Notes under the pieces: generated by a model
What the model was told of the DNA's origin: nothing
Database searches by the model: none
The model's input: only the letters and a program-made list of their open reading frames with translations
Shown here: in pieces, positions 22,801-47,100 of the stretch
Layout of the letters: each line of letters starts with the position of its first letter
Numbering within the stretch: position 1 is the first letter of the stretch
Assembly: GCF_037042905.1 (NCBI RefSeq)
Contig: NC_087251.1
Location: forward strand, 10,914,001-10,978,000
Source of the DNA: Lytechinus pictus
Lineage: Eukaryota
Direction of reading: 5' to 3'
Length of the DNA: 64,000 bases
Program-made: the position numbers and the translations under genes

Positions 22801-23851
22801 CGGTACTCAAAAGGCAACGCTGTTGCTGTTCGTCAGTCATGGCTGAAGTGAAAACCTATAATGAGCTGATAGTATGTAACATGTAATCATATGGATAAAT
22901 ATTTTTTGTATCAGGTATGTTGTCGAGGCCGGCCTCGAGTCAAAATTTTGTCGACTTTGGCATTGGCCTTGGGCCGAGTCATGTGTAAAAAAAATCGACC
23001 GAAGAAGGTTTTTTTTTCAACGCCCTCGTGACTCGAAACTTTACTAGACATGCTAGACTGAGAGCCCATATAGTTCACAAATTGAAATTATATTGATTTT
23101 ATCAAATAAGTGTAATTCCGACATTTATTCAAACATAAATTCAAATATGCCAACCTTCTCCTACCCCGAGTAGACTGAACTCTTCGTCACTTCCAAACGA
23201 ATCGGTAAGCTTTCCCATCACTTCGTCGTTAAAAAACTCATTCACCTTATGACGGAGAAGATCCGTCTCACCTATCTTGGAGAAAGCCTGGTAGTAGACA
23301 TCTTCATAGCGCTCAGGATTGTCTGTTAGAGGTTTGATGTTCGAAAAAGTGGCAGACATAATCAAAAATTTGTCTTATCCTGTTACAGAAGATACAATAT
23401 TGCCTAAACATGTAGATCCTAGTATGCTCTGCATATTAACGGAAGGACCGGGCGGAAGGAGTGTTAATTTCAATTTATGTGACGACACGGATTGACATTA
23501 TTGCACATATAATGTGTTATGAACACAATGGATAAATTCCATATTTAGTTTTATCAACACCCATACGAGTCATTGATGCACATCATCAACATGACTACAG
23601 TTTAATCAAGTTTTATTTGGACTTTGTCCCTTGATATTTCTTTTTATTCAATCTCTTTATTCAGTTATGGGACTGTCGATACAGATTCATCCAAATAAGA
23701 AACACGGTATTTGGCTGAGTGCCTAAATACAAATAACAACAGAACATAATAGATATCATGATAAATCAACCTTCATGTAGTCAAGAAATATTATTAAAAA
23801 ACGGTAAAGTTGTTTAGTACTTGAGTTGTTTATTATCAATATCTTTATTGC

Positions 23852-23896
<45 letters not shown>

Positions 23897-23965
23897 CATT
23901 ATTATTATTATTATTATTAGTAGTAGTAGTAGTAGTAGTAGCAGTATTAGTAGAAGTAGTAGTAT

Positions 23966-24037
<72 letters not shown>

Positions 24038-24089
24038 AAGTAGTAGTAGTAGTAGTAGAAGTAGTAATAGTAGTAGTAGTAGTAAAAGC

Positions 24090-24139
<50 letters not shown>

Positions 24140-27100
24140 AAGTAGTAGTAGTAGTAGTAGTATTTGTGGTTTAAATGGGTGTATAAATAAATTTGTCATG
24201 ATTGCGGATCGGCAACTACGCTATCGATATTGGAAACAGAATGGAAAACAAATATGTTTCTGACATAACGAATACTGCATTCATTTTGGTAAAACTCTTT
24301 CTCCTTTAATTTTACCCCAGCAGAATTGGTTTTCTTTGTTTCAATTATTTCTTCTTTCTCTTCATGGAAGCCATTCTTGCGGGTACTATAGCAGCCTGAT
24401 ATGCCTGTCAATGCAAAGTGATTCAGCAACATTGACATTGGTGAAGTGTAAGTATAGTTACGGTATGGTGAGAATGACTAGCAAGCTCGTACATGCCTTA
24501 TTTCTTTCCGATATTGTGCGTCAGATCTTCTCCTGGAATCGCTTTCTCATACTTCGATCGACTTTCATTCTTTTTTTAAAATCCTATTCAGGGGACTTAG
24601 TGGTGATGTATGCCATGATGGAATTAGTATATAATCTAGGCGGAGGCTGCAGTTATTGTCTTTGCTGTTATGCTGAACGCAGGCGATAGTCTGATCTGGC
24701 GAAGACTACACATTGTGGCTGCGTCTGCTAACGCAGCCACAATGCGTAGTCTTTGCTAGATCAGACTATCGCCTGCGTTCAGCATAACAGCAAAGACAAT
24801 TACTGCAGCCTCCGCCTAGAATACGATGGAATAGGACTTGATCCATTCTTACATTTTGTTCTTGTGAGAGTATGATAATTTTGAGTCCAATACACACAGC
24901 CTTCTGGAGTCCACACTTTCCAATAGTCTTCCATACTTCCATACCTGTGCTAAAATAAACAAGAGTGTTGTGCTCCTCGAAGACAACGATTTAGCTATTC
25001 CTTGACTTTGGCCCTAATCTCTGGGCTACGAGATCTGATATCCTTTGCATCGGACGTCTAGTCCCTGGCATCGTGAGGTCCGAGGTCCATGAGTCTTTGG
25101 CCTCGGGCAGTCGATCAGCACTTGACCTTTTCCTTGGCCTCAGACCGTATCCCTAACATCATGAAGTCTGAAGTCCGTGTGCCCTTGGCTTCAGACAGTC
25201 AATACTTGACTTTGACTTTGGCCTCGGACGTCTAGTCCTTGGCTTAATGGGCCCTTGGCCTATTGCAGTCAGTACTTAGCCCGGGACTTAGCCTTGTACT
25301 TGAACTCGGGCATTGAGTCAGACCTCGGCTTTCAGACCTGCGCACACCACTGTCAGATGTGTCCAGAGGTTCATTCTGCTTTGGCATCAGATAGAAGCAG
25401 ATAACTTACATCTATAAAGAATGTATTGATAAATTATCGGGCATAATGTAAGTGAAGAGCCGGGTATTTTGATAGGGATGCACATCAAATTCCTGGGGAG
25501 CGTTTCATCAATATTTTCATCCGACAAGTTGTCAGATCTGACATCTTTCCATGATTTTGATTGGCTGAAAGGCACTGTTCCTATGGTAACTGTCGGATAA
25601 AATGGGACTTGTCGGATAAAACGTCAGACAAGTCCTTTCATGAAACGCCCCCCTGTACACCCTCCATCCCGGATTGCGCCTTACTTACTTGATGGTCCAA
25701 CACTAACGTCATATCCAGTACCAACCTTTTTGCAAGTGTTAATTGCTCTAGCTGTGACATAATTCCAGTCCTTGCAGTAATGAACATCAGCTCGTCAATT
25801 ACACTGAATCCGTACAACATAGTGATCCAAATAAAACCTGAGATAGTGAGATAATGGTTTATCGTTGAAAGTAAAGAGTTTGAAAAGCCAAGTAGTCTGT
25901 TTTTGTGTCCATTCTTCACTATTATAGATTGTGCTGTCTTACGAGTGCCCATACTGTACGGCCAGATCGAGACGATAGAAGAGAGTGCTGTCACTACCCT
26001 TCTCAATACCTTGATGAACCAAGACAACGTTGACTTGGTGAATGATTGTTGCATCCGATGTCCAACCCATGTTGATGATATCGCTGTGGTCTGCAGACAA
26101 ATGTGTGAGAGGAGAACGACGGTAAGAATGTGTGATGACGAAGATGGGCATGCCACAGGGTAGGGGTTGAAGTGGCGATGTGGTGTTGATGATGATGGTG
26201 ATGATGATAACGAATATTTCAGTAATGTTGATGATCATCATCATTGTTAATGATTATAAAAGTGACATTAACGACGACGACGATGCCCGACAATGATGGT
26301 GACGATAACTTTATTTTATTGGTCATTCATTTAATGCAATGTGATCTTTTGACCCCTACATGGCTTTTGAACTTATCATCCTCATGAACACAGGTGTGGT
26401 GTTTATCATTTGTACCGAGTATAAACAGTTGAAAACAATTGATGCAGATATGAATAAGAGCAGGTTTAACAAAGTCTTGAAAAAAGGATGGACATGACCT
26501 CATATCATTCGACCTTTAAACACCTAGATGACCTTTGACCCCATCATCCTCATTAACACACATGTGGTATTACTCAAAGCTTTGTACACAAGTGATGCAG
26601 AAATTAAACAAAATGAGAGCACTTTGAATAAAAACTTGACTTTTTGAACCCTAGATGACCTTTGACCTCATCATTATCATGAACACACGTGTGTTATTAC
26701 TCAATGATCATTTGTACCATGGAGCTATTGTTAATAGCTCTATGTTTGTACCAAGTGTGAACATAACTGATGCAGAAATCAGAAATAAAGAAATGAGAGC
26801 AATTTGAACAAAACTTGACCTTTCGACCCCTATATGACCTTTGAACCCCACCTTCCACAACAACACACATGTGGTATTACCCAAGGATCATTTTATCTAA
26901 GTGTGATAAAAATTGATGTAGAAGAAATGAGAGCAATTAGTAGAACAAAAATTTTAACAGCCTAACGGACCAACAGGAAAAGTGATTACAAGGTCTCTGC
27001 CGAACTTATTTCAGGCGAGACAAAAAAAATAACAGGCCGGCATCCCCTACAGATATCATGGATATGGGCCAATTCCAATATTGTTTTATCTGATAGAGCT

Positions 27101-27656: not shown

Positions 27657-28166
27657 GATAATTTTTTTATTCGATAAACTGGTACTCGGCTCAGGCTTAC
27701 CAATCATACCGATAGCTACACTCGAAGAAACACAAGTCAAATGGATTTTGAAACCTCCTTGGTATTACTATTATGTATGATGCAGGGCTATGTGCAACTT
27801 TACACCTGTTATGTCGCACCTTTCATAAAGGAAAGCACCTTTAGAGTTAATTCTTTCAGAAAGGATATAGGCATGAATCTCTAAAGCAATTGAGTAACTT
27901 TTTGGACTTTTGCTAACATCAGTGTTGTGGGACCCTAAATGTCGTCAGTGCACGCAATTATGTTTCAAGAGGACAGCCATAAGTATCATTACATGCTCTG
28001 CTGTATAAAAATATTATTTTTCATCCGCTCCCTAGTCTTATTATTCTAAAACTTTAGCGGTTAATAGGCCATTATGACACAATTTGCAGACAATTTTTAA
28101 GATTGTTGTGTATCATAATTTAAGAGCTCAAAACTTTTGGACCTGAAAAACATCAAGGTTTACAAT

Positions 28167-31100
28167 ACAAGAATTGAAATATGGGGAAAAACCCTCCAAA
28201 TATTTTTTTAACCTTATGAAAAAACGTAGGACAGAAAAACAAATGATTCAACTGCTTGATAAAAATAATGATGAGTTATATATGGATGAGGAAATAAAAC
28301 GAGAAGTTCTCATGTTTTATGAAGAACTTTACGGTTTTCAACAGGTGTCAGATTTTCGTGATATTTTGCAAGAACTAAAAGAAATCGAACATAATCCAGT
28401 TTCAGACGAAAAAGCAAAAATGATAGAAGGAGAGATCTCTTTCGAAGAAATTCGTAAAGCAATTAACAATTTGAAGACGGGGAAATCCCCCGGTCAAGAT
28501 GGGTTTACTGCAGAATTTTATAAGTTTTTCATGCAAGATATTGGAATTTATTTATCAAGAAGTTTGAACTCAGCATTTGCTTGTGGAAACTTATCACATT
28601 ATCAATATTTAGGAATAATAACTTTGTTACCGAAGGGGAATAAGCCGAGAAACTTGCTCAGAAATTGGCGACCAATTTCTTTACTTAATGTCCAATATAA
28701 GATTCTTTCCCATTGTATTTCGAATAGAATAAAACCGTTGTTAGAAGAAAATATACACAACGATCAAAAAGGTTTTCTCGCTGGTAGATATATAGGTGAA
28801 AATATTAGAATTATTTATGATATAATTTCCTACACAGAAAATAATGACATACCTGGTATAATTCTTTTTATCGATTTTGAAAAGGCATTCGATTGTGTTT
28901 CGCATGATTTTTATGGAATGTACTGCACTTTTTCAATTATGGTGATAATATTATAAAATGGATTAAAGTTATGTATGCTAAATCTACTTCTAGTGTTTTG
29001 GTTAATGGCTGTTTAACCTCACGTTTCAACATTAAAAGAGGATGTCGCCAAGGGGACCCCCCCTCTCTCCCTATTTGTTTATACTGTGTGCAGAGATCTT
29101 AGGAATGTTAGTAAGAAAATCTCAACGGATTGAAGGCATAGTTATTGATAAAAAAGAATACAAACTATTGCAATATGCAGATGACACCGTTTTGTTTCTC
29201 GATAGTAAGGAAAGTTTGCAAAATGCACTAGACCTTTTAGACATGTTCTCGAAATATTCTGGTTTAAAGGTTAACATGACTAAACGCAAATATTGTGTAT
29301 TGGGTCTCTGAAAAAAACTGTTCAGATTGATTTGCCTGTGACTGATAAAACGTTGATTAACATGAAATTCGTTAGATATTTAGGAATCGATTTCTGTATT
29401 GGTCTGAAAAATCTCCCTGATTTCAATTATAATAGAGTATTTGATAAACTAAAAAGACAAATGATATCATGGTCAAAGCGTAATATTTCTGTATTTGGTC
29501 GTGTAATCCTTGTCAAATCATTGCTTGTTTCACAATTCAATCATTTATTCATGTCTATTCCAAATCCGTCTAAACATCTTTTAAAATCAGTAAATGTGTC
29601 TTTTTACAAATTTATATGGAAGGGGAAACCCGACAAAATAAGCAGGAAACAGATTGTTTGTAACTATGAAAATGGTGGACTTAAAATGATCGATGTTGGA
29701 CACTTTTCTAGAGCTTTGAAGCTGTCTTGGATAAGAAGAATACTGTCAAACTCATGTGAAGAAGTTTCTCATTTAATGTATGCATTTTTGAAACCGTTAG
29801 TAACATTAGAATGGGGTAAAGGGGATATATATTTCACCAAACTATCACTCATGGTCCGAAACAGTTTTTGGAAGGAAATCTTTATTATAGTTTCCTCCTT
29901 TATTCGAAATGTTCAGTGTACTTCTCTTTTTTGGCCGGCTATTCCTTTATGGTACAATTCTGATGTAAAAATTGGTGGAAAAGGTATATTCTTAAAGGAA
30001 TGGTGGGACAAAGGCATTAGATTTATTAACGATTTATTAGATGAGAATGGAAAACTTCTGGAAAGAGAAGAGTGTGAAAAAAGATTTTCAATCAAAATTC
30101 AGTTTCTTCATTATTATGTCTTATGGCAGATTATTAAATGTAAGTATAAAGCTCAGTTGAATACGTGTAATATGAAATCTAATGAACCATTATGCCCTGC
30201 TTATATCTTTCATTTACTGAAGGACAAAAAAGGATGTAGACATGTATATTATATCATGTTAAAAGAAAATGATGATAACTTGACTAAATTGTGTAATAGA
30301 TGGTTTGTCAATGGCATTTCGATGGACACCAGAGATATGAAAAATTATTTTAAAACGATGTTTCGATGTACAACTTATACTACAATGAGGTACTTTCAGT
30401 ACCGACTGCTAAATAAGATATTATATTTGAATAAGGATCTTGTAAAGATGAAAATAACTGCAGATGCAAAATGCTCTTTTTGTGGAAGGGAAGAAGAAAA
30501 CGCTATACATTTTTTTTATCAATGTCATGTGGTAAATCTTATCTGGGTACGATTTACAGACTGGTTATACAGTTTAACAAGATTTAGAATAAATCTTTCT
30601 GCTGTACATGTTTTGTTTGGTTTCACAGAAAAAAGAAACGATGCTTTAAATTGTTTAATAATTTGGACGAAACAACAAGTATACTCTGCTCGTGTGGAAA
30701 AAACCATACCTAATTTTGAGAAAATTAAACAATATATAAGAAAATGTTACAAAAATGAGAGGCAAATCAGTATTATGGAAAACAAAACACATAAATTTGA
30801 TAAAAAATAGGTAAATTTCGAAAGAATTCTTGTCATTTTGTAATAAGATTTCCGGACCTTTATATGTATTTCTGTTTAATGTAAACATATTTTCATGATG
30901 AATGTGCAGTGTGTTTCGGGTGAGAGGTGATCAATTATTGTTGGAGTGGCCTTGTTCGGTGCTCATTTGTTCTTTGCTGCTGCAAGTGTCGGCGGCGGAA
31001 CGGATGGGTGTAGGACATGGCCACTCTAGTATCGGTTGTCTTTTGCTTGAAACGCCCTGTAGGCCTATACTTTGTACAAAATTATGCTATGTGTGTATGA

Positions 31101-32275: not shown

Positions 32276-33200
32276 GGACGTTCCACAGTTAAAGTGAAAT
32301 CCATGTCATTTTCACCAAACTTTGCACATAGATACTTTAGAACCTTAATATTCGAAATACGCAAAAATCAACATAGGTCCATGTGCTTGATTTTTTGCTA
32401 TAGAGTTTCAAAGTTCACCCAAATTGATGTTCTTAAGAATTGCGCATTTAAAAGAATTCGGCATTTTTAGACCGCCCAAGATTACTACAATGAGTTTAAA
32501 CCTCTATTGCTCAGTCAAAATACATGAAAAAGTCATCAAATTTCGCAAGAGAGTTAATAATTGTATCGTTAGAATGGAGAATCTATTTATAGTGCTATTT
32601 GTTTGCAATTTTAAGTTTAACAGCACGTTCCGTTCTTAAAAATGGCGCAAAAGATAACAAAATCCCAATCTAAAAAATGTGAAATTTCAGTAACAAACTA
32701 CAAAAGTACAATAAATGCTGCACTTTATTCAAAATCCATGTCATTTTCACCAACTTTTGCAGAGGAAGGTATACCTAAGACGTACAAACATTAAAAAATA
32801 GGGGTTCATGTGCTTGTTTTTAAACTATCAGTATTTTATTAGAGCAAATGTGCTTTTTAAAACACCAAAAATGCGCCGAATGCTTTGTATCTATGTGAAG
32901 AAAAAATCAAAACCACTCACCATTTATTCAAAGTCGGGGTAATATTCGTGATTCTTGGCAGCACTGCAGAGTAAAGTATTTTGAAATTTTAGATATATTT
33001 TTTTTAATGGTCCATGGAATAATTCAATTTTTTAGCTTCATGAAGTAACGCATCGGATCTGCAGTTAAAGTGCAGAAGATGAGAAAAATCAGCTCATACC
33101 CGCAGCTAATTAATCACCTGTTCATCCATTGTGACGTCAGCGCACAGAGTGTAAACTATGCGCAGATCATAATGCGCACAAACATAACTGTGGAACGTCC
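32276..33200. mobile_element. Non-autonomous TTAA-targeting DNA transposon (Kolobok-like)
   Basis: Perfect 16-bp TIR GGACGTTCCACAGTTA at both ends, flanked by TTAA at 32272-32275 and 33201-33204. Confidence 0.88.
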
Positions 33201-34406
33201 TTAAAAGTTACATTATGACAGCGCTTCTTGGTTATAATAAAGGATCATTACTTTCAATATTTATCGAAGTCACCAACTATTACAGACTCTTACTTTCAAT
33301 AATTTGTTCATTATAATTCAAAGTAAGTATCGATTTCCATAGTATCTTTGCAAATAGGGATCAAGTTTTAGTTACACATCAATTAATAATGCTATATATC
33401 CACTGAATACAATAACATGAGTAGAATATATATTTTAGGTATGCTTCTTAAAACGAAGAAAATTACAATTCAAGTGGACACACAGTATATATTTTCACAG
33501 CATACAGGTACAAAAGTATATCAGATACATTCATTTAAAAAAAATACCTGAAAAAATCATAGCAATAGAAAAGTGAGGTGAACATAGTATAAAATTACGT
33601 ACATAGAGCATAAGACTTGTGTAATACTTTTCAATTCAATTTAAATCCTTTTATGGGAATCTATTATTTCCATTCTCAAATTATACCCCAAACTTGCATA
33701 CTCTCCATTACATTATATTAACATAAATACAAAATTCAGAGAGCTATATATAGGGAATTGAAATCATTAGTGATTTTCAATGCTACCAAATATAAAATAC
33801 CTTAGTTATGCATCTAATTGACTTCAAAACATGATATGTGTACGCAATAAATGAATTCGGTGAAATGAGATGCATAAGCATATTTTCAGAAAATCAAATT
33901 TCAACAGATAAATTAATATGAAGGCCGATAGTCGGGCGTGTCTCGGTCAATGAAACAGATACATCTTACCAGCATATCGATTATGAAATTCTTGTTTTAC
34001 TAATAAATTTAAGAAAATAAGCGAAGATAGAATATGCTATTCTCAGCATACTAAGTTACGACAATCATCTGAAGAGGTAAGTTTGCGGGTCATCATATTT
34101 CAGGCTAAATTTTCCATCCTGGGAACCTGATGATATTACAATTTTTCCTCATTTTGTAATGAGTCAAAGTATATAAAAGTTCCATTAACCTCAATTTTGG
34201 CTACTTGAGCTTTGAACTTCAAAAAAGGTGTGACACTATGGTGGGAACACCTCCATCCCGAGTAGAGCGTCAGGTTTCACATCAGTGGAATAGAAGAGTC
34301 GCGGGGATATTGCACCTAGACTTGAAAAAAAGGATAGTGAACAATCATGGTAATATGGCAGCAATTTAATTCAACAAATTCGTGCATTTTCTTTTTGTAT
34401 CCAGTC

Positions 34407-35021
34407 TCATGACTCGATGTAAAGCTTCGAGTAAGAACTTGACCGATTAACTTTCGGAATCTCCATCACATGAAACTTCGGAAACTGTCGCTCCAGGACA
34501 TACACGGTTTTGAGATTTTCCATTGACCGTTCGGCTGAACTCGTTAATCTTCGGTCCTGTGCATCCACGTACATCTCGATGTATCCAAGATATATCTCCA
34601 GCTTCGGCAGAGTCGTCTTCAATCCATTCAGGAGCTGATCAATGAAGATGATGCAATCATTACATGGGGATAAGTAGGTGAAGAGGTACAGCGAATGTTG
34701 GGCGTGGTCGTTCAGGTGTACCATATCTTGGAGATTCGATATGAGGTGACAAAGGACTCGTTGTTCAGCGTGCTCAATGATGCCATTGGCCTCTCTGCAA
34801 CTTGTAGCGACGGCAAAATCCCAACTAAGGAATCCCCCACCTCCGAATGGATGACCTCGGTAGATAGGTTTCTCACTGTCAAGTCCAGCCATGTCCAAAG
34901 AGAAAGCAGCAAATTGTTTGCGACCAGGGGATCGCATGCTGAATTCATCTCTGAAAGTTAGATACAGACGCTTGAAATATTCCTCGACTGAGTGCGTTCT
35001 GAATTCTTGATAAAATTCCAT
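34407..35021 (-). CDS. AID/APOBEC-like (SNAD-like) zinc-dependent cytidine deaminase, 204 aa
   Basis: Intact ORF with HAE (34764-34772) and SPCNDC (34653-34670) zinc/catalytic motifs 32 residues apart. It has a hydrophobic strand LYLFTYLSPC, an N-terminal KQFAAF strand and a downstream EIYLGY..Y strand. The start context aaaATGg is strong and a splice acceptor lies upstream at 35111-35125. Confidence 0.88.
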   Translation of the reverse strand: MEFYQEFRTHSVEEYFKRLYLTFRDEFSMRSPGRKQFAAFSLDMAGLDSEKPIYRGHPFGGGGFLSWDFAVATSCREANGIIEHAEQRVLCHLISNLQDMVHLNDHAQHSLYLFTYLSPCNDCIIFIDQLLNGLKTTLPKLEIYLGYIEMYVDAQDRRLTSSAERSMENLKTVYVLERQFPKFHVMEIPKVNRSSSYSKLYIES

Positions 35022-35480
35022 TTTTTCTGGATTCTCTCAGAAATGTTCAGGAAGTAGTCCTGTTCGATATTATCCCCAATGCGATTTATTGTTTCAGGTT
35101 CAGGAGGCCTCTAGCTAAAAAAAGAAACAATAACTTCTTGATCAAGGATCTGAACTTGAATGTCTCGATAGCATTGTCCAAGAATAACAAGTTGAAAAAA
35201 TCATTTCAATCCTGGTTTTCTAAACCATAAATAGTTTTCACCGTAATAATGTTCATGCATGCACCGAATAATATTGGTTACAGACTAAACGAACGAGCAC
35301 CGCCCCGCGACTAATCATGATTCAGAAAAAGAATCTGTTTATAAACATAATGTCTGGGGAATCCCCATCATCTATGTCGATGGATACGTATACATGCGAT
35401 CATTTACGATCATTGCGCAACACCATGTGTTGCATCAAAATATCTTTTAATCATTGCAGGGCCATTGTCGTGACTCTTAC

Positions 35481-35560
35481 CATGGTTATGACCGGGGTTA
35501 TGACGGGCAAACATTGATGACGTTAATGCAAAAATAATTGCTAAGATTGATCTATTCAAC
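35481..35560 (-). other. Putative upstream (5'UTR or first-codon) exon of the deaminase gene
   Basis: Bounded on the minus strand by the acceptor cttttttgcag (35561-35571) and the donor ATG|gtaaga (35480). Confidence 0.5.
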
Positions 35561-35929
35561 CTGCAAAAAAGGTTAAATTATTAAGTTACGAGTTTTAATA
35601 GGTACAACTCAGATTTTCTCAGATGCCAAATGTGTATGTAACCTACATGGCGAAAAAAATTGACATGATGTAGGACAATAATATACCTAATATGCCGACT
35701 TTAAAAAATCACACTATATGGGGCTAGTATCATGAAAATATACATTTCCTTTGTTCAAATAAGACACGCTTGTCGATGGAGGGGGGGGGGGTAAACTATA
35801 TCGAGGGACCATAGCTACAGGATAGAGAATGGAAGGAAAAATGTAGGAGAGGAAAGAATGGAGACGGCATGAAAGGGGGAGGGAGGGGGGAGAGCGAAGA
35901 GGGAGAGAGAGAGCGAGCGAAGAGGGAAT

Positions 35930-36051
35930 GAGAATTTCCTACCCACGAGAAACAACTTGCCTGATGCATCATGCATACGATTCAGGGAAATCCCCTTGAC
36001 GACAACAGCTCTGCGACGGGGGAATTCCCTGAGAGCCATTTCATTACGTCA
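35930..36051. promoter_or_regulatory. Cluster of NF-kB-type sites plus a CRE/bZIP-like site upstream of the deaminase
   Basis: GGGAAATCCCC at 35985-35995, palindromic GGGAATTCCC at 36020-36029, one-mismatch GAGAATTTCC at 35930-35939, and TTACGTCA at 36044-36051. Confidence 0.55.
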
Positions 36052-37683
36052 TCTCACACAATGTTCCAAAAAATAATTCCAAAATAATTTGACTTTGTAA
36101 TTAATTTCGCACTGCACAATTTCACGTGTTCAAATATGTTGATCATCATCATACTGATTATACTAAGCACTAAATTAATTTACATTTTATTTTTAACAAA
36201 GAAATAACAACTATTGTCACATTAATCTAATTCAAAAATATGCGATCTAAGTTTATTAGATATATCAAAACAATCATAAATATATTCATTTCAGATTAGT
36301 CACACCAAATTGATACATTCCAATCATTATCAATATTTCATGAAGAAAAATCACTGTAAAAAATAATGATAAACGAATGGAGAACTATGTAATCAGTTTG
36401 AAATAATGAAAACAATTTTTTTTTTTGGGGGGGGTATAATAATAGTTGATGCTTTATACTATCACCAATGCCATCATCATATTATTTTCATAATGTACCT
36501 CTCTGGAAGCAGGCAAAATTCTCTTGCTGAATCCAAAAAATTAACCGTCAATGTAAATCAAATCATCATATTCATAAAATAGGGTTTATGAATTTACACA
36601 AAGATGACATATCAAAAAGAAATCATGTGGTTTGGCAATGCCATGCTCTTAAAAGAAAAGGAAAAAAAACAGGAATAATGTAAAAACATGTTCTTCCACA
36701 ATTCAAAATATATAGCCGTGAGAATCATCACAATAATAATAAGAATGATGATAATATTACAGTAATAATGATACTTTTAATCTACTGCTTCTGCAACTAC
36801 TAATTACGTCTGCTAATAATAATAACAATAATAACAATTCAACATGTTTCCTGAATATATCCTTTCCAAACATTATATTGAAATGAAATATAATGGTCAA
36901 AGCTATAAAATTATCATATAACCCATAACCATTTTTTTAATGGAAACTGGTGATTTGTCATGTTCCATTAAACTAAAGTATAAAACTATAAATTTATTCT
37001 TCCTGTGGAAACAACCTTTACCAAGGTTAGCATACCTTCTACTGAAAACATACTGGACACCACAGAATTATCTAAAAAAATTAAAGAAACCATATAATTA
37101 AATATCAACCCTCAATAAAAGATTAATTGTTCTACATTACTTATAATATTCGATTGATTGAATGCAGCGATGTCAAAATAGAGTTAACTAGGACTTGGAA
37201 AACATAATGAGTTGAAATAAAAAAACACATAAGAACAGAATACTCCTGATGAGGAACAATGGAATACGTAAATCAAGAGATTTCATCGACCAGAAAGAAC
37301 ATCGGAGTTATATCATTTAGAACAATTTTAAGTACATCTACTTTCTAAAAACTTAAACACGGCCTAATTTCCATGGCATAATTCCATTCATTCTGATTTC
37401 AACATCAGATCATTACTCACACCAAACACAAATTTTGAGATGGCAATATGACTGTAAACTCTAATATTGAATTTGGAAGAAAAAAATTGGTATTCCCAAG
37501 GAATCTACCAAACCTACAACCTGTAATATTTCATCTTAAGCTATTAATGTGATTAAGATCAGGAAGATTTTTTGTCTTCTACATATTCAATTCATGGATA
37601 ATGTTGTGTTTTATTTGAAGAATAGATGTATGGGATAACTGCCTGATGTTATTCTTATTATAGTAGTATATAATATACATTGG

Positions 37684-38010
37684 GGCCCGTATTCTGAAGT
37701 CAGGTTTAACTTAGACCACGGTCTAACTCTGACCACAGTCTAACTCTGTGCTAAAATTATGGGAAGCCAAACGTTTCAAAGTTTTGTTACGATGAATGCT
37801 TCTCATGTTTACAGTGCTCTTTACTAATTCTTTAATGGTGAAGACAACTGTCATACTTATCCTTCCCAGGCAGTTAATAATGTTTTGGGAGTCAAATGAG
37901 CTGACACATTGAACCTCTACTGTTAGAGATATATGTAACAACTGGCTCTCCATAGTTAACCAAAACTTAGAACCAGAGTTTAAATTAAACCCGACTTCAG
38001 AATATGGGCC
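37684..38010. mobile_element. MITE in the cysteine synthase 3' flank
   Basis: TIR ggcccgtattctgaagtcaggtttaa / ttaaacccgacttcagaatatgggcc. A degenerate relative lies at about 31687-32187. Confidence 0.7.
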
Positions 38011-38105
38011 AAAGAGACAATTTATTTCACTTGAGAATATGACTTGCTATGAAGCACACCTAGTGTCTTGAGAGAACAATAATGTGAGGTCATTCCTAGA
38101 GGTCA

Positions 38106-41100
38106 TCATGAATGGAGGAAGCCGTGACATTCTTCTGGTACGCTATCAAATAATCCTAAAACATTCAAAAAGAGAACAACAATCTTCTATCATCAATAGG
38201 AAACAATAAGTCAATTCACACTTGAAAAAAAAGAAAAAAAAAAGTTAAATAAAAACTACAAGGGAATTTTAAGATGTAGAGAGGATTATAACAAATATTG
38301 TGAGATCTAAGATTTTTTGTCATTTCGATTGGAAAAAAATATCACTATTATTACTTTTTCCCTATTTAATAAGTCTTTTCAAATTTCCTAACACTTTAAC
38401 TGTGAAAACAAAATTGGGGCTATGATCAATTATCTCTCTTTTGCACTAAAAATACAAAAAATAACGATTAAAAGGAGAACAAAAAAAGTGTGGACAAAAT
38501 TATTTTTTCTTAAGGGACAGGAGTACCTTAACTATATAAATTGTCCTAACTTGGAAAAAAATTACATTGAAAAATTAAATAATGCATTGTTTTTTTCAGG
38601 AATCCAATTTCGCTTCTTTCCACTTAATCCCCATTATAAAGAAAAAAAGAAAAGGCAATGAAAAGATACTAATAAGATTTTCTGCTGGAGTGTGTGTGGC
38701 CTGGACTTTAAAGTCCCTGAATTACCTTTTTCTTTGAGCCAAGTTCTGTTGAAGAGCCTTGCATAGTATCGTTGACCAGTGTCACACAGGCAGGAAGCTA
38801 CCACATGCCCAGGTCCGAGTTGCTTAGCAACCTAAATACAGATTAATAATTTTTCAAAAATTATAATAGATCATAGTGTAAAAGTAGTTTGTACAATCAT
38901 AACTAATTTTCAATTACATTTTAAAACTGAAAAAAATTATGTATGCCTACAAATCTTTAAATGAATTAAGGTATATCTGCACATGAATTACATCAAATAA
39001 AGTCATAAACATAACAGCAGTACTATAGTGGCTGTTGTTTATGCTAATATTACATTTCCTAATCCTACTACTTCTTTAATTCTCTTGATTACTCATCTTA
39101 CTACTTCTACAACAACTTCCAAAATTAATTTGAAGGCAAAACACTTTTTATGGCCTGTAAGGGGTGCAGCAATTGTGCTCAACACGAAGCAGTTGACCAT
39201 CCCGGGGGGGGGGGGCCACTTACATTGACGAGTGGATACCATGCGTGACCAAAAAAACACGTAAAAAGGATGTCTTTTTCAAGATAGGGCACGTTACGTA
39301 CGTAACGTGATAAGGGTGTCAAAAACACAAAAATATTGAAAAAAGGGTATCTATTTCGCTCGGAAAAATATACGTGTTTAGGGTCAAATATGCGGGGATG
39401 ATAAAACAAAATCAAAATGTTTTATAAAGGATGTCCTTTTTGCCCCAACACTACGTGTATAGAGTCCGATTTGCGCGAGGTGTGAAAGGTGGAGCCGTAC
39501 AAAACCAAAATAATGGTGTGTAAAGGTATAACCGACGACCGACGGACCCATGACATAACAATAAAATATCGCTGTACTTGTTTAGGGGTTCATTTCAGGG
39601 AATACTTGCCAAGAGTATCGTTTTATTTCTAATAGGCCTACTTGTTAAGTACATCGCTGTACTTGTTTAGGGGCTCAATTCTACTTGCCAATAGTATTTG
39701 TTTCCAATACTTGTTAAGGGTAGGGTTTCACACGCCTTGTTAAGGGGTGCATTTTCAGAATATGGAAAATACGTGTTTAGGGTGCTTTTCAAGACCCCGT
39801 GGTCGCGCATGGTATCCATTTGTCAATGGAAGTGGCCCCCCCGGGTTGACCATATAGGTCTTCCCTTCTCAGCAAAGACCGATACAATTACACATATGCT
39901 GCCCTCTTCAGTCCAATGTAGGCCATATATAATAGCCACCTTAATTATTACAACTGAGAGTACTGAAAACAATTCAGTTGCAATGAAGCTCATAGTCAAT
40001 GTGTATGATAATGTTGAAGTCAAAGTAAAAACCCCACATGGCTTTTTCTTGTTTGTGATAGTGAAATATCATGGTGGGGGGGGGGGGGGAGAAAAAGAGA
40101 AGAGGAAAAGAAGGGAATGAAGAAATTGGAAGAAAATGGAAAGAAGAGTATAAAAAAGATAGATCTTGGCCTTGTATATCTATAATACGCCTATAATTCA
40201 ATTCAGAAAAATTAGTAAAACTACCTTTTAGGTGCCCCCCAAAAACAATACCCTTTCAGACTTCATTTCAAAACCAATTGAAGTAATAACATATATAAAA
40301 TACATTTCTTCTCTCAAAATTTGGCAAACAAACCATTATTGTTGCAGGTTTACAGCAACAGAAGAAAAGTGACAGTTTGAAAAATACCATCAATCATGAT
40401 ACATTTTAGAATTATTTCATATCCAGTTTGGTATAAAATGGAACTGTTGAGTTTACTAATATATTCAAATTTTATGGACAAGTGCTTTTTCTTTAGCTTC
40501 CTCAAAGCTTGCCAGAGGATTTTACGAGACATAGCAGGACGTCATAAATGCGGATTGCTATTTGATTAATATTAACATGTTATAAAGAAATACATTATTA
40601 CCAAAGTCCAGGGAAAGAAAGATAATTAAATCATTTAAAATCAGGTCTATTCTCAAGAATTTACACTGAATGGAATTTGGACAATACAATAAGAAAATAT
40701 AGCACATTTTATCAAGTTTAATTATGTAAATGTAGGTCAAATGAAACTGCCTCAGTTTTTACCATATAACAAGGAATTGTGTATGCATTCTTTTTCTTTC
40801 AAAATGTAAGATTTACAGATGAATTTTGCACTAATATTTCTTTGACTATAATGTCATTTCAAAGTAAAGCATGTTGCTCAGAGACAACAATACAACCCCT
40901 TCTTCCTTCTGGGAAAAAATACAAGAGAGATAGCAGGAGATGAATTTATTTGTTTTCTAATAATAGAAACAAATAACACCTGCATAGATTGAAATCAAAA
41001 GTTTAATCAAGCCACAAGTGATTGCTTCTTCACGGTGACTATATACCATAAACATCTTGCTACCACACACACCGATCAACCACAACGTGTTGTTTGCTTT

Positions 41101-44100: not shown

Positions 44101-47100
44101 AGTTGTAACTGTCTAAAACTTACAATGAAGAAACTGTAAAGATTAAGCACAACCTTTCCTCTATTTCATAAAACAATTAAATAGTTCTCAAAGCTACAAA
44201 GCAATTAATAGGATTCTGAATAAGCTGGAACTGTAATCTAAAACTTAAAATGGAGAAATTGTAAAGATTAAGCATAACCTTTCCTCTATTTCATAAAACA
44301 ATTAAAATTTAAGGCCATCAATAGAAAGAGTAGTAATTAGCAATTTGTTTCAATTGTAGTATTTGCTTCAGTCAAGTGTTGATAAATAAACATTCCTAAC
44401 AAGTGATTTAAAAGCTATTGATTTGAAGAATAGATTGACAACAGCTAACCTTTCACCCAATTCTTAATCGATTTGAACAAGATTGTATATTTACAGTCGC
44501 TAATTAATTGGCACTTTGATTTTATTAAATTGGTGTGCATGTGATTCTACAAATCAGTTGTTTTATCACCATTCCCGCATGTATAGCCCAATTAAACTAT
44601 TTGAAGAGGAGTTCAGTGGGTGAAATACGGAAAATGTGCAACTTTGCTTTGAAAGAAAAAACTTGCAGAAATCAACAAAGATTGTAAAAATTCTATGAAA
44701 TTCTTCTTCATGTATGTGTGTGGAAGTTCAAATCACAAAAGTGGGAGGGGCATTTATAATAAGTAAAATAAAGTCTGTTAATCAGATCAAGAGGTCCGAT
44801 GAAATACATTTAATAGTGCAAAAACAACTTTGAAAAGAAAAAGAACAAACTTGCAAACTTGTACACCCTTTTCTGAAAGAACAATTGGAGGAATAATAGA
44901 CTTCTCATGAGGTTGCATGTTTTATCAAAGTTTATTCTAAAAAATTTTTTTTTGTAAAAATGACAGATGAGCTTGAGACAAATCAGCTTGAACTAGTGAA
45001 AATGTTCAACTTGGGTAAAGTTGTGACTCATGAATTATGAAAAGTTGAAATTTTAGGCCTATTGGACAAGGGTTATTAGGTTAATCAAGTTTTCAACTTA
45101 CCATACTGACAACATCGGTATCCATAATGCACAAAGCCTGATCAATGGGAGCGCCCTTTAGGTTATCTGTGACCCGACCTTGACCTATGCCCTCTGTGAT
45201 GGATGATCCTGGTGACCTTTCTATCTTACCGTGGGTGAAATAATTATAGAGGACACTACCTTGAGGGTCTGCCAAGACGACCTTTACATCCTTACTCTTT
45301 TCCTTCATGTACATACCTACCCCTGTAAGGTAGAAACAAAACAAGTTGGTTAGTATGGTCACTGAGTACTGAATTATATGTTTAAATAAAGGGATCATTT
45401 GGTTACCAGCAACAAAGAGGTTAAATGGGAGCTTTAAGTAAAAGCAGAAAACTGAGGGAAATTCATCACTGAGGGTTTGGCAAAACCTGTAAAATAACAG
45501 TTTTAAGTTAGTGAAGTCACATGCGAGCAGACCATCTCATATGTCATGTGATATAGTCAGAAAACTGAAAATTATTTTACCTGTACACTTAATATATGAT
45601 CAGACACATAATTTGATAAAGTCGATTCCCTTGAAAATAATTTTCATTTATCATGACCCATGAAAAGGGTAATTCACCTTCGAGTTAAATTATGATTATT
45701 ATTATCATTTATCAATATCATCATCATAAGACGTAGTAGAAATAGAAGTAGAAGTACTACTACTACAGTGGTAGTAGCATTAGTAGTAGTAAAAACATCA
45801 TCTTCATCATTATCAACATTATTATCTAATGCGGTTTTCAGACTGAAGGCAAAGTGGAGTGGACCGACATTATACCACTTTCAAACTGGTAAGCTCTGCA
45901 GCGGTGTATCTGCAGTCGTTTCTGTGGTTTCCAAGCGAGTTCGCGCCATATGCGTGGCGCGAGGAATCTTCCCCATGCAGCAATGAATAAAGTTACGCGC
46001 GAGATTCGCGCTACCGCACTTCCGGTGCGGACTTACTCCGTATGTAACCCTCTTCTCGAAGTGGGTCAAGTACTCTGCTTTGAATCCGGATTGAAATAAT
46101 CCTAGAATTCTCATACTGCCCTCCAAAATGGAGTAACTCCTTTTGGTCTCCGGAGTAACTCCACTTAAGCTGTCAGTATGAAAGTGGTATAAGAGTATCT
46201 CACCTGCTAAAGTGCCACCTGTTCCGGTGCCAAAGGTAATAGCATTAACCTTTCCCTCTATGAAGAGAAAAAAAACATCAAAGCAACATTATCAACATTA
46301 GAATATCATTGCATGATTAATATTTTATATAGTCCTCCAAGCTTCCAACTGATTGGTGGTAATTCTGATTATCATGAGTGCTAGCTCGAGATAAAGCAGG
46401 GGTACAGTGATAAAAATTGTGCTTTGTATCATCTGGCAAAGCACGCTATATTAATCCAGCTATCATTATCATCATGATGAACAGAAACATTTTGCATGAC
46501 ATAATCAATTCTAGGTATAAAATATTTACACATTCTAAGTAATAGGGAGGAATTTTCTCTACTTAAACCTTCACATTCCCAATAATTGCATGCCTATTAA
46601 TGATAGGCTATGTAAATTAAGTTGTACTTAGAGATACAAAAAAAAGAAACTTAAAAGCTTGGAATATAGACCCAGATGAATTCCAATATCTCACACACAC
46701 AAAAAAATTGAGAACAGACACTTGTTATCTAATTCATATAATGCATTTTGGACTTGCCTGTATGAAGATGTAAAACTGTATCTTTACTTATTTAAATGAA
46801 ATAATATTATATACTGTTTAATTTGTATGACATTTCTTTAACTTTAGTTAAAAAGAGCAACCTAGCTGAATATAAGATGATAATAATATTTAAATGTCAT
46901 TTAATTTAAATGTAGCTAAAAAAAGCAACCTAGTTGAAAGCACATTAAGTTTCTACCTATATTCATAAAAATTCACAATAATAGCTTAACAAGTGGAATG
47001 CCTCTGGCGGTCTCACCTGCATCACGCTATTCAATATAGCAGCAGTGCTGACTTTGAAAACTACTATAAAATAATTATTCACAAAAACACAATTCATATA

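Follow-up and report, generated by a model that had tools for sequence, protein, structure and literature searches.

We analyzed a 64,000-nucleotide window of the Lytechinus pictus genome (assembly GCF_037042905.1, contig NC_087251.1, positions 10,914,001 to 10,978,000 of the forward strand), in which open reading frame (ORF) scanning and homology delineate, on the minus strand at 34407..35021, a complete single-exon coding sequence of 204 codons plus a stop codon for an ortholog of AID-like deaminase 9 (the protein is hereafter P0001; positions refer to the window unless another contig is named). The stop codon occupies 34407-34409, and the stop-to-stop frame is 209 codons long and open for only 5 codons 5′ of the ATG, so that an in-frame upstream coding exon is impossible beyond these 5 codons. 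A preliminary description made from the sequence had reported an intact single-exon frame with the motif HAE-x32-PCNDC, and this was confirmed: H84-A85-E86 is followed after 32 residues by P119-C120-N121-D122-C123, and the strings KQFAAF, LYLFTYLS, YLGY..Y, GHPFGGGGF, and MYVDAQDRR are each found in the protein. The frame is far beyond chance: along its entire length, it matches a cluster of sea urchin proteins at 75% identity (E 7.8e-100), and its GC content is 45.5% (50% at third codon positions) against 33% in the flanks. The N-terminus of P0001 is charged and predicted to be helical, and since the highest Kyte–Doolittle mean over any 15 residues among the first 30 is −0.40, the protein lacks a signal peptide, as had been proposed. 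No C-terminal cysteine cluster was found in its sequence.

A word-indexed search of 5.8 billion proteins (29 candidates, E ≤ 0.01) matched P0001 to four clusters: its own, the 75% cluster at 100% coverage, one from Lytechinus variegatus at 96%, and one from Diadema antillarum at 62%. The exact sequence is already on record (NCBI/UniRef), and its 90% cluster includes two L. pictus RefSeq entries labeled ‘uncharacterized protein’, LOC129265536 and LOC129266023, which differ from P0001 by 3 and 2 residues, respectively. The earlier expectation of a probably unannotated gene is thus not borne out; the gene is annotated though unnamed, and real but not new. The two named L. pictus cluster members carry F3C, L117F, and Y144H (P0005), and L117F and V175A (P0006), relative to P0001; the varying codons lie at 34671-34673, 35013-35015, 34590-34592, and 34497-34499. 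These two entries may be alleles, haplotigs, or paralogs, and the assembly has one locus. Within the 75% cluster are six Strongylocentrotus purpuratus entries named ‘AID-like (cytidine) deaminase 9’ (SpAIDL9), to which P0001 is 75–78% identical over its full length (76–78% in the 17-sequence alignment A2), compared to 94–97% for L. variegatus proteins and 62% for Diadema. The full-length open frame is retained as far as Diadema, which belongs to a different order.

Searches of the L. pictus genome itself (812 Mb, 368 contigs) consistently returned a single locus: one match with P0001 as protein query (2 candidates scored), one of one with the DNA of the gene, and one with the distant relative P0022 (3 candidates scored). 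Within the window, tblastn with five family proteins gave no second copy, everything outside 34410-35021 having E ≥ 0.3. SpAIDL9 is the closest named relative over the full length and a single locus is present, and we consider it nearly certain that P0001 is the SpAIDL9 ortholog and a classical AID/APOBEC-like deaminase (AAD). An exhaustive HMMER search of 1.84 billion representatives yielded three proteins at E ≤ 0.001, i.e., the one from Diadema and two unnamed ones that are 35% and 31% identical, while a family-profile search (5.8 billion proteins, 2028 candidates scored) found eight clusters; on this basis, the AIDL9 family is very small. The more similar of the distant relatives, P0022, matches P0001 at E 2.7e-21 and 35% identity. 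All named members are sea urchins, ranging from Temnopleuroida/Toxopneustidae through Diadematoida, in line with the lineage-specific distribution anticipated for the gene. Of 258 candidates, none at E ≤ 0.001 was a longer or fused form of P0001, a negative that carries little weight. In L. variegatus, two near-identical entries, P0003 (162 amino acids) and P0019 (205 amino acids), have close LOC numbers (LOC121419149 and LOC121419146), and the shorter begins at a methionine equivalent to M44 of P0001, which suggests that the gene was duplicated in tandem or that its model is truncated.

Much is already published about the S. purpuratus ortholog, and the novelty that had been attributed to this gene therefore falls away (here and below, we draw on parts of Liu et al. 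2018, PMC5956068, and of Krishnan et al. 2018, PMC5889660). SpAIDL1-9 were identified by tBLASTN, 5′ and 3′ rapid amplification of cDNA ends gave the full-length cDNA of SpAIDL9, SpAIDL ORFs were amplified from genomic DNA, and numerous SpAIDL9 alleles were reported in S. purpuratus (PMC5956068). Its transcripts peak in the digestive tract and vary among animals, and Vibrio injection changed their levels without a pattern that tracked infection (PMC5956068). In E. coli mutator assays, significant activity was obtained only for SpAIDL1 (KanR and rpoB) and SpAIDL2 (rpoB), and a pilot at 25 °C gave no SpAIDL9 activity; the authors noted that the assay was possibly not optimized for marine invertebrate enzymes, and likened the inactive SpAIDLs to APOBEC2/4 (PMC5956068). 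For Lytechinus, a literature search on APOBEC-type sea urchin deaminases, judged by titles and the starts of abstracts, gave no paper on this gene.

Sequence profiles place P0001 closer to AADs than to other deaminases. Its best Pfam matches were APOBEC_N (PF08210; E 1.8e-4, 22.0 bits for a cut-off of 25) and NAD1 (PF18778; E 5.8e-4, 20.5 bits for a cut-off of 27), followed by SNAD4 (E 2.7e-3), APOBEC2 (PF18772; E 7.6e-3), and APOBEC1 (E 0.012), all ahead of the generic dCMP_cyt_deam_1 profile at E 0.016 (15.5 bits for a cut-off of 25); SNAD1 was at E 0.019. The AAD profiles were ahead of the generic one by about two orders of magnitude for P0001 and by about five for the best member of the family, the family’s best AAD E-values being about 1e-7 to 1e-8, compared to 0.006 for dCMP_cyt_deam_1. 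Across the family, 16 of 17 members matched NAD1, APOBEC_N, SNAD4, APOBEC2, and SNAD1 at E ≤ 0.1. P0022 scored above the curated cut-offs of seven families (NAD1, APOBEC_N, SNAD4, APOBEC2, APOBEC4, APOBEC1, and SNAD1) and P0001 above none, so that the membership of P0001 is by transitive homology only. When the AIDL9 family was aligned by hhalign with the five AADs from the same genome that pass the Pfam cut-off, the match had a probability of 81% (E 1.2e-5), and the alignment superimposed HAE, SPC, and the loop-7 tyrosine. A protein-atlas feature search returned APOBEC-type clusters at 0.88–0.92, which we treat as leads only.

All four zinc and catalytic residues (H84, E86, C120, and C123) are in place, and the preliminary description had likewise called the catalytic residues complete. 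Family alignments and the predicted structure locate the zinc-ligand histidine and catalytic glutamate (codons 84–86, 34764..34772, minus strand) at the start of helix 2, and HAE is invariant in 17/17 and 11/11 aligned family members. The two zinc-ligand cysteines fall in loop 5 and at the start of helix 3 (codons 119–123, 34653..34667, minus strand); S118, P119, C120, and C123 are invariant in the family and align with the SPC..C of APOBEC3G and of the AADs from the same genome. Directly before S-P-C, the TTA codon at 34671..34673 (minus strand) encodes L117, at the position of the tryptophan in the APOBEC3G ‘SWSPC’ (HMMER alignment). Where strand 4 passes into loop 7, codons 149–151 (34569..34577, minus strand) encode E149-M150-Y151. 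The position of Y151 is a tyrosine in 18 of 19 family sequences and a phenylalanine in P0024, and aligns both with the tyrosine of APOBEC3G ‘ARLY’ and with an invariant tyrosine of the AADs from the same genome (‘SGFY’). In the usual deaminase fold, loops 1, 3, 5, and 7 surround the pocket. A conserved insert of about 25 residues between strands 1 and 2 (residues 43–68, codons at 34818..34895, minus strand), which includes GHPFGGGGF, corresponds to an even-numbered loop and hence probably lies away from the active site; its residues A45, G46, F59, G62, and G63 are invariant even in relatives at 27–30% identity. The residue opening loop 3 and contacting the cytosine is, by the criterion that we applied, an asparagine or a small residue (S/D/P/H); T73, an invariant residue at the end of strand 2 and 11 residues before H84, may occupy this position. 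A loop-7 pocket aromatic, equivalent to Y130 of APOBEC3A, is typical of AADs and restricts the pocket to pyrimidines, while TadA has a small residue there (PMC5889660).

We then considered the predicted structure, i.e., five AlphaFold2 models of P0001 built from the 17-sequence alignment, of which the best reached a mean predicted local distance difference test (pLDDT) score of 82.2 and a predicted template-modeling score of 0.84. This model consists of a long helix 1 (2-30), strand 1 (37-42, FAAFSL), strand 2 (69-73), helix 2 (85-95), strand 3 (110-117, SLYLFTYL), helix 3 (121-137), strand 4 (142-149, EIYLGYIE), and helix 4 (163-179) between strand 4 and strand 5 (183-187), with small extra strands at 52-53, 57-58, and 63-66. 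The strands guessed beforehand from FAAF, LYLFTYL, and YLGY thus correspond to modeled strands 1, 3, and 4. As modeled, the fold is that of the helix-4 division of deaminases, with a parallel strand 5. This division comprises AADs, TadA, ADAR, and dCMP deaminases (PMC5889660), and the topology is accordingly necessary, yet insufficient, for an AAD. In a Foldseek search with this model, ranks 1–33 were all APOBEC3, APOBEC1, or AID structures (best E 2.1e-5), with APOBEC3C, 3G, and 3F at the top. Comparison by VIA-align gave Msmeg3575 (Z 9.3, root-mean-square deviation 4.3, 135 aligned residues), ADAT2/3 (Z 9.0), RibD (Z 8.9), APOBEC3H and APOBEC3G (Z 8.8 each), dCMP deaminase (Z 8.7), TadA (Z about 8.4), and AID (Z 8.0, root-mean-square deviation 3.6, 125 aligned residues). 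Best structural matches to free-nucleotide or tRNA deaminases had been named beforehand as grounds for rejecting an AID/APOBEC-like enzyme; Foldseek favors APOBECs, whereas VIA-align ties them with tRNA and nucleotide deaminases. The predicted fold confirms a zinc deaminase but, taken by itself, cannot tell an AAD apart from deaminases of tRNA or nucleotides; an AAD is favored because of the profile evidence and the loop-7 aromatic residue.

Transcription of the locus was evaluated from three raw rRNA-depleted RNA-seq runs with the same species label (X19-X21; about 6% of each run, i.e., 8.3–8.7 million records) and from one set of Logan contigs (X1, whose RNA label is a guess). In X1, a single colinear, intronless contig of 1476 nt at depth 42.4 covers 33798..35273, its strand and ends being unreadable from contigs, and an adjoining contig at depth 29.7 covers 33234-33796. 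The only difference from the assembly in these contigs is a G>A change at 34992, synonymous at His10. X1 also includes a spliced contig in which 38154 is followed directly by 38725, with minus-strand GT..AG borders, a junction seen in the raw RNA runs as well, and has zero-depth bins at 35437-36237. The spliced contig and the zero-depth bins indicate that X1 contains RNA, and the latter further separate the deaminase contig from the minus-strand transcript upstream. The locus thus probably gives rise to an unspliced transcript of about 2 kb, and the data suggest that this transcript is expressed under some conditions only. A motif scan found a candidate TATA box (TATAAA, 35338..35343, minus strand; a lead only) about 65 nt upstream of the X1 contig end and 317 nt upstream of the ATG, and at the other end an ATTAAA, a candidate polyadenylation signal, lies 37 nt past the stop (34370), the next one being at 33008, but X1 contigs extend as far as 33234. 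A bacterial promoter and terminator scan, which is inapplicable to a eukaryote, gave 17 promoter-like sites, with 15.7 expected.

The window contains several further features. The transcript upstream (36440-38833, minus strand) contains an intron at 38155-38724, bounded by GT..AG on the minus strand, for which the three raw RNA-seq runs provide 3, 4, and 1 reads (first mate on the plus strand only) and which is also spanned by a 1237-nt X1 contig that continues past the stretch examined; this transcript probably represents the 3′ portion of a neighboring gene. The single-copy deaminase locus is flanked on both sides by interspersed repeats (32500-33300, 37573-38106, and 39175-39975), which have very high depth in RNA-seq and contigs, differ from the assembly at many letters, and show inverted joints as well as loose ends. 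Past the 3′ end of the deaminase gene, at a distance of about 3.6 kb, two long open frames of a retrotransposon without long terminal repeats span 28147-30810 on the plus strand, matching RVT_1 in 28147-28953 (E 4.1e-14) and zf-RVT in 29284-30807 (E 1e-9); since the frame is broken between the two, this is a degraded element of the long interspersed nuclear element type. A long trinucleotide-type simple repeat at 23756-24263 yields poly-Leu and poly-Ser frames of about 150 codons on opposite strands and is not a gene, and an ORF fragment at 45096-45536 (minus strand) has a weak PALP match (E 0.0027) below the cut-off.

Overall, we consider it likely that P0001 is the Lytechinus ortholog of SpAIDL9 in a fuller sense, i.e., the product of a single-copy, intronless gene for an intracellular, classical, non-secreted AAD, which would act as a cytosine deaminase on a narrow or cofactor-dependent substrate and be conditionally expressed. 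Taken separately, catalytic competence as a polynucleotide cytosine deaminase of some kind is somewhat favored. In such an enzyme, zinc bound by H84, C120, and C123 would activate a water molecule, E86 would shuttle the proton, and a flipped-out cytosine of a single-stranded polynucleotide would be deaminated. The natural substrate would be narrow or dependent on a cofactor or condition (RNA, a specific sequence context, or a low temperature, for example), as suggested by the published inactivity of the ortholog, the glutamate at the phosphate-contact position, and the conditional expression. Bulk single-stranded DNA (ssDNA) would probably not be the natural substrate, because SpAIDL9 is no significant mutator in E. 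coli. Expression would be tightly conditional, being gut-enriched and variable in S. purpuratus and absent from the three RNA-seq runs analyzed here.

Several observations weigh against this assignment or against activity. Each Pfam AAD match of P0001 falls under its gathering cut-off. A sequence search of Protein Data Bank (PDB) chains with P0001 alone gave nothing significant, and the same search with the family profile gave only non-significant matches, the best being a phage dCMP deaminase (E 0.59), with APOBEC3G at E 2.5. Only one of the five AlphaFold2 models is confident, the pLDDT of the other four ranging from 66 down to 47; the Foldseek TM-scores are as low as 0.30–0.42, and VIA-align puts non-APOBEC deaminases first, although scores within about 1 Z are to be read as ties. 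Depth is zero over 33301-35703 in the three raw RNA-seq runs, in which the flanking repeats are deep. In E. coli, SpAIDL9 was inactive or minimally active for both KanR and rpoB (PMC5956068). L117 is found in the allele of this assembly, with which the X1 contig agrees at that codon, while 18 of 18 other family sequences have a phenylalanine or tyrosine. Finally, a basic residue ending strand 4 (R128 of APOBEC3A), which core vertebrate AADs ‘among others’ retain and which is not universal, is replaced by a glutamate (E149) in 15/15 echinoid-type sequences where APOBEC3G has an arginine; the four distant relatives P0022-P0025 all have a lysine at this position.

Further along the same line, AIDL9 could be an old single-copy echinoid AAD lineage, dating back at least to the divergence of Diadematoida from the lineage of Lytechinus and Strongylocentrotus, that has departed from a DNA-mutator role, a scenario which we regard as rather unlikely. 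The phosphate-contacting basic residue that closes strand 4 would then have become an invariant glutamate, with the conserved insert between strands 1 and 2 being retained, and the enzyme would act on something other than bulk ssDNA; candidates would be one particular RNA, cytosine in a modified form, or a target to which a protein guides the enzyme. Such a substrate would explain the silence of the ortholog in the E. coli assays.

Alternatively, P0001 may be a broad ssDNA mutator acting like APOBEC3 against viruses or transposons, in which case the negative assays would reflect only that E. coli offered unsuitable conditions, such as those of temperature, sequence context, or folding. The catalytic residues are all intact, as is the loop-7 tyrosine, the top Foldseek matches are APOBEC3 structures, its paralogs SpAIDL1 and SpAIDL2 act as mutators in an assay that may be suboptimal for marine enzymes, and S. 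purpuratus carries numerous alleles (PMC5956068). Against this, SpAIDL9 was non-significant for both KanR and rpoB and lacked activity in the 25 °C pilot (PMC5956068), the strand-4 glutamate takes the place of a basic residue, and the gene is single-copy with one-to-one orthologs from Lytechinus to Diadema, unlike the AAD expansions associated with arms races (PMC5889660). We therefore consider a broad mutator improbable. The prospect of mutator activity raised in the preliminary description is likewise weakened, because the E. coli assay proposed there (rifampicin), as well as a kanamycin one, had already been run on the S. purpuratus ortholog with no significant activity (PMC5956068).

To a similar, low degree, P0001 might be a non-mutator comparable to APOBEC2 or APOBEC4, which would bind nucleic acids or protein partners, or serve as a decoy, and keep its catalytic residues for structure and zinc binding. 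The inactivity of the ortholog in E. coli and the comparison made by its authors (PMC5956068) are consistent with such a role, as are the charge reversal at E149, a phosphate-contacting position of strand 4, and the conserved 25-residue insert as a possible interaction surface. However, the H, E, C, and C residues and the loop-7 aromatic are invariant or conservatively kept down to 27% identity, which is hard to explain without catalysis, and inactive AADs usually lose their catalytic residues (PMC5889660).

A divergent free-nucleotide or tRNA deaminase outside the AID/APOBEC type (such as a dCMP deaminase, TadA/ADAT2, or a guanine-deaminase-like enzyme) is very improbable. Such enzymes do head the VIA-align ranking, with dCMP deaminase close behind, and the best, non-significant PDB profile match is the phage dCMP deaminase; but these Z-scores are tied with those of APOBEC3H and APOBEC3G, within 1 Z, and the AAD profiles are ahead of dCMP_cyt_deam_1, which is itself below its cut-off. 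In addition, loop 7 has the aromatic Y151 where TadA has a small residue, and a narrow echinoid distribution is ill-suited to a housekeeping enzyme. Least credible of all is a silent or decaying copy in L. pictus, open by recent descent only, for which the zero reads in three RNA-seq runs and the non-aromatic L117 at an otherwise aromatic position might speak, since the full-length frame is kept to Diadema at 62% identity, the GC content of the ORF contrasts with its surroundings, the X1 contig reaches a depth of 42 in a run containing spliced RNA, and the S. purpuratus ortholog is transcribed (PMC5956068).

In practical terms, the gain is modest: several Lytechinus and Diadema proteins that RefSeq lists as ‘uncharacterized protein’ can now be given the name of AID-like deaminase 9 orthologs. 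The comparison also shows that AIDL9 is a conserved single-copy echinoid gene rather than a member of a lineage-specific expansion. The strand-4 glutamate and the Phe/Leu polymorphism at the aromatic position of ‘SWSPC’ might explain the inactivity of the published ortholog, and could guide biochemistry or base-editor mining. No new question is opened, as invertebrate AID/APOBEC-like enzymes, including the AIDL9 orthologous group, were described in 2018.

Compared to the known systems, P0001 shares with vertebrate AID/APOBEC proteins the HxE...SPCxxC zinc site, the helix-4 topology, and the loop-7 aromatic, and differs from them by a leucine (phenylalanine or tyrosine in the family) instead of a tryptophan before SPC, a glutamate instead of an arginine ending strand 4, an insert of about 25 residues between strands 1 and 2, and an HAE-to-PC spacer of x32. 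This spacer is about x27 in AID and APOBEC3. The preliminary description had called it longer than in vertebrate AID/APOBEC, a point that is not supported, as x32 falls inside the published family motif H[AVS]E-x(24-36)-PCxxC (PMC5956068), which P0001 fits. It had also called the protein ‘SNAD-like’, a label that has to be dropped: SNADs are a secreted clade of vertebrates and sponges with signal peptides (SNAD1, 2, and 4) and disulfide cysteine clusters, and AADs from echinoderms fall within the classical clade (PMC5889660). P0001 resembles SNADs through a weak, sub-threshold Pfam similarity over the catalytic core, and differs from them in having neither signal peptide nor C-terminal cysteine cluster.

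A Pfam APOBEC_N search of the L. pictus genome (7 candidates scored) detected five other AAD loci, all above the cut-off. Three of these (L002, L004, and L005) lie within about 127 kb on contig C17 (2317461-2444264) and two (L003 and L006) within about 54 kb on contig C19 (1441258-1495652). Their products have a Cys/His-rich loop 7 (e.g., RLPTCDD..PPCHC) and long acidic or repetitive C-terminal tails, with HAE-x24/25-PC in the C17 proteins and PCx5C in the C19 proteins. They match the lophotrochozoan–echinoderm metal-binding AAD clade (Krishnan et al. 2018, PMC5889660), which is marked by a metal-chelating insert (a histidine in loop 1 and three Cys/His residues in loop 7) and whose members are, like P0001, classical, non-secreted invertebrate AADs. 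P0001 has none of the metal-chelating insert, short spacer, acidic tail, or clustering seen in these AADs and stands alone. Its loop 7, MYVDAQDRRLTSS, is without Cys or His, and its H57 is not conserved, being a proline in S. purpuratus and a glutamine in Diadema.

P0001 can also be compared with the named sea urchin and Lingula enzymes. SpAIDL1, SpAIDL2, and LaAIDL1 of Lingula belong to the same named family by tBLASTN, and SpAIDL1 is of similar size and spacing, with H86, E88, C123, and C126 corresponding to H84, E86, C120, and C123 of P0001; these three are mutators in E. coli, whereas SpAIDL9 is not (PMC5956068). Neither P0001 nor the family profile retrieved proteins resembling SpAIDL1-8 at E ≤ 0.001. 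SpAIDL9 itself differs from P0001 in genus, in a 3-residue difference of N-terminal length, and in having a phenylalanine where P0001 has L117. The two are nearly equal in length (202 versus 204 amino acids), their HAE and SPC..C motifs are identical and equally spaced in the alignment, and they share the insert between strands 1 and 2 and an intronless ORF.

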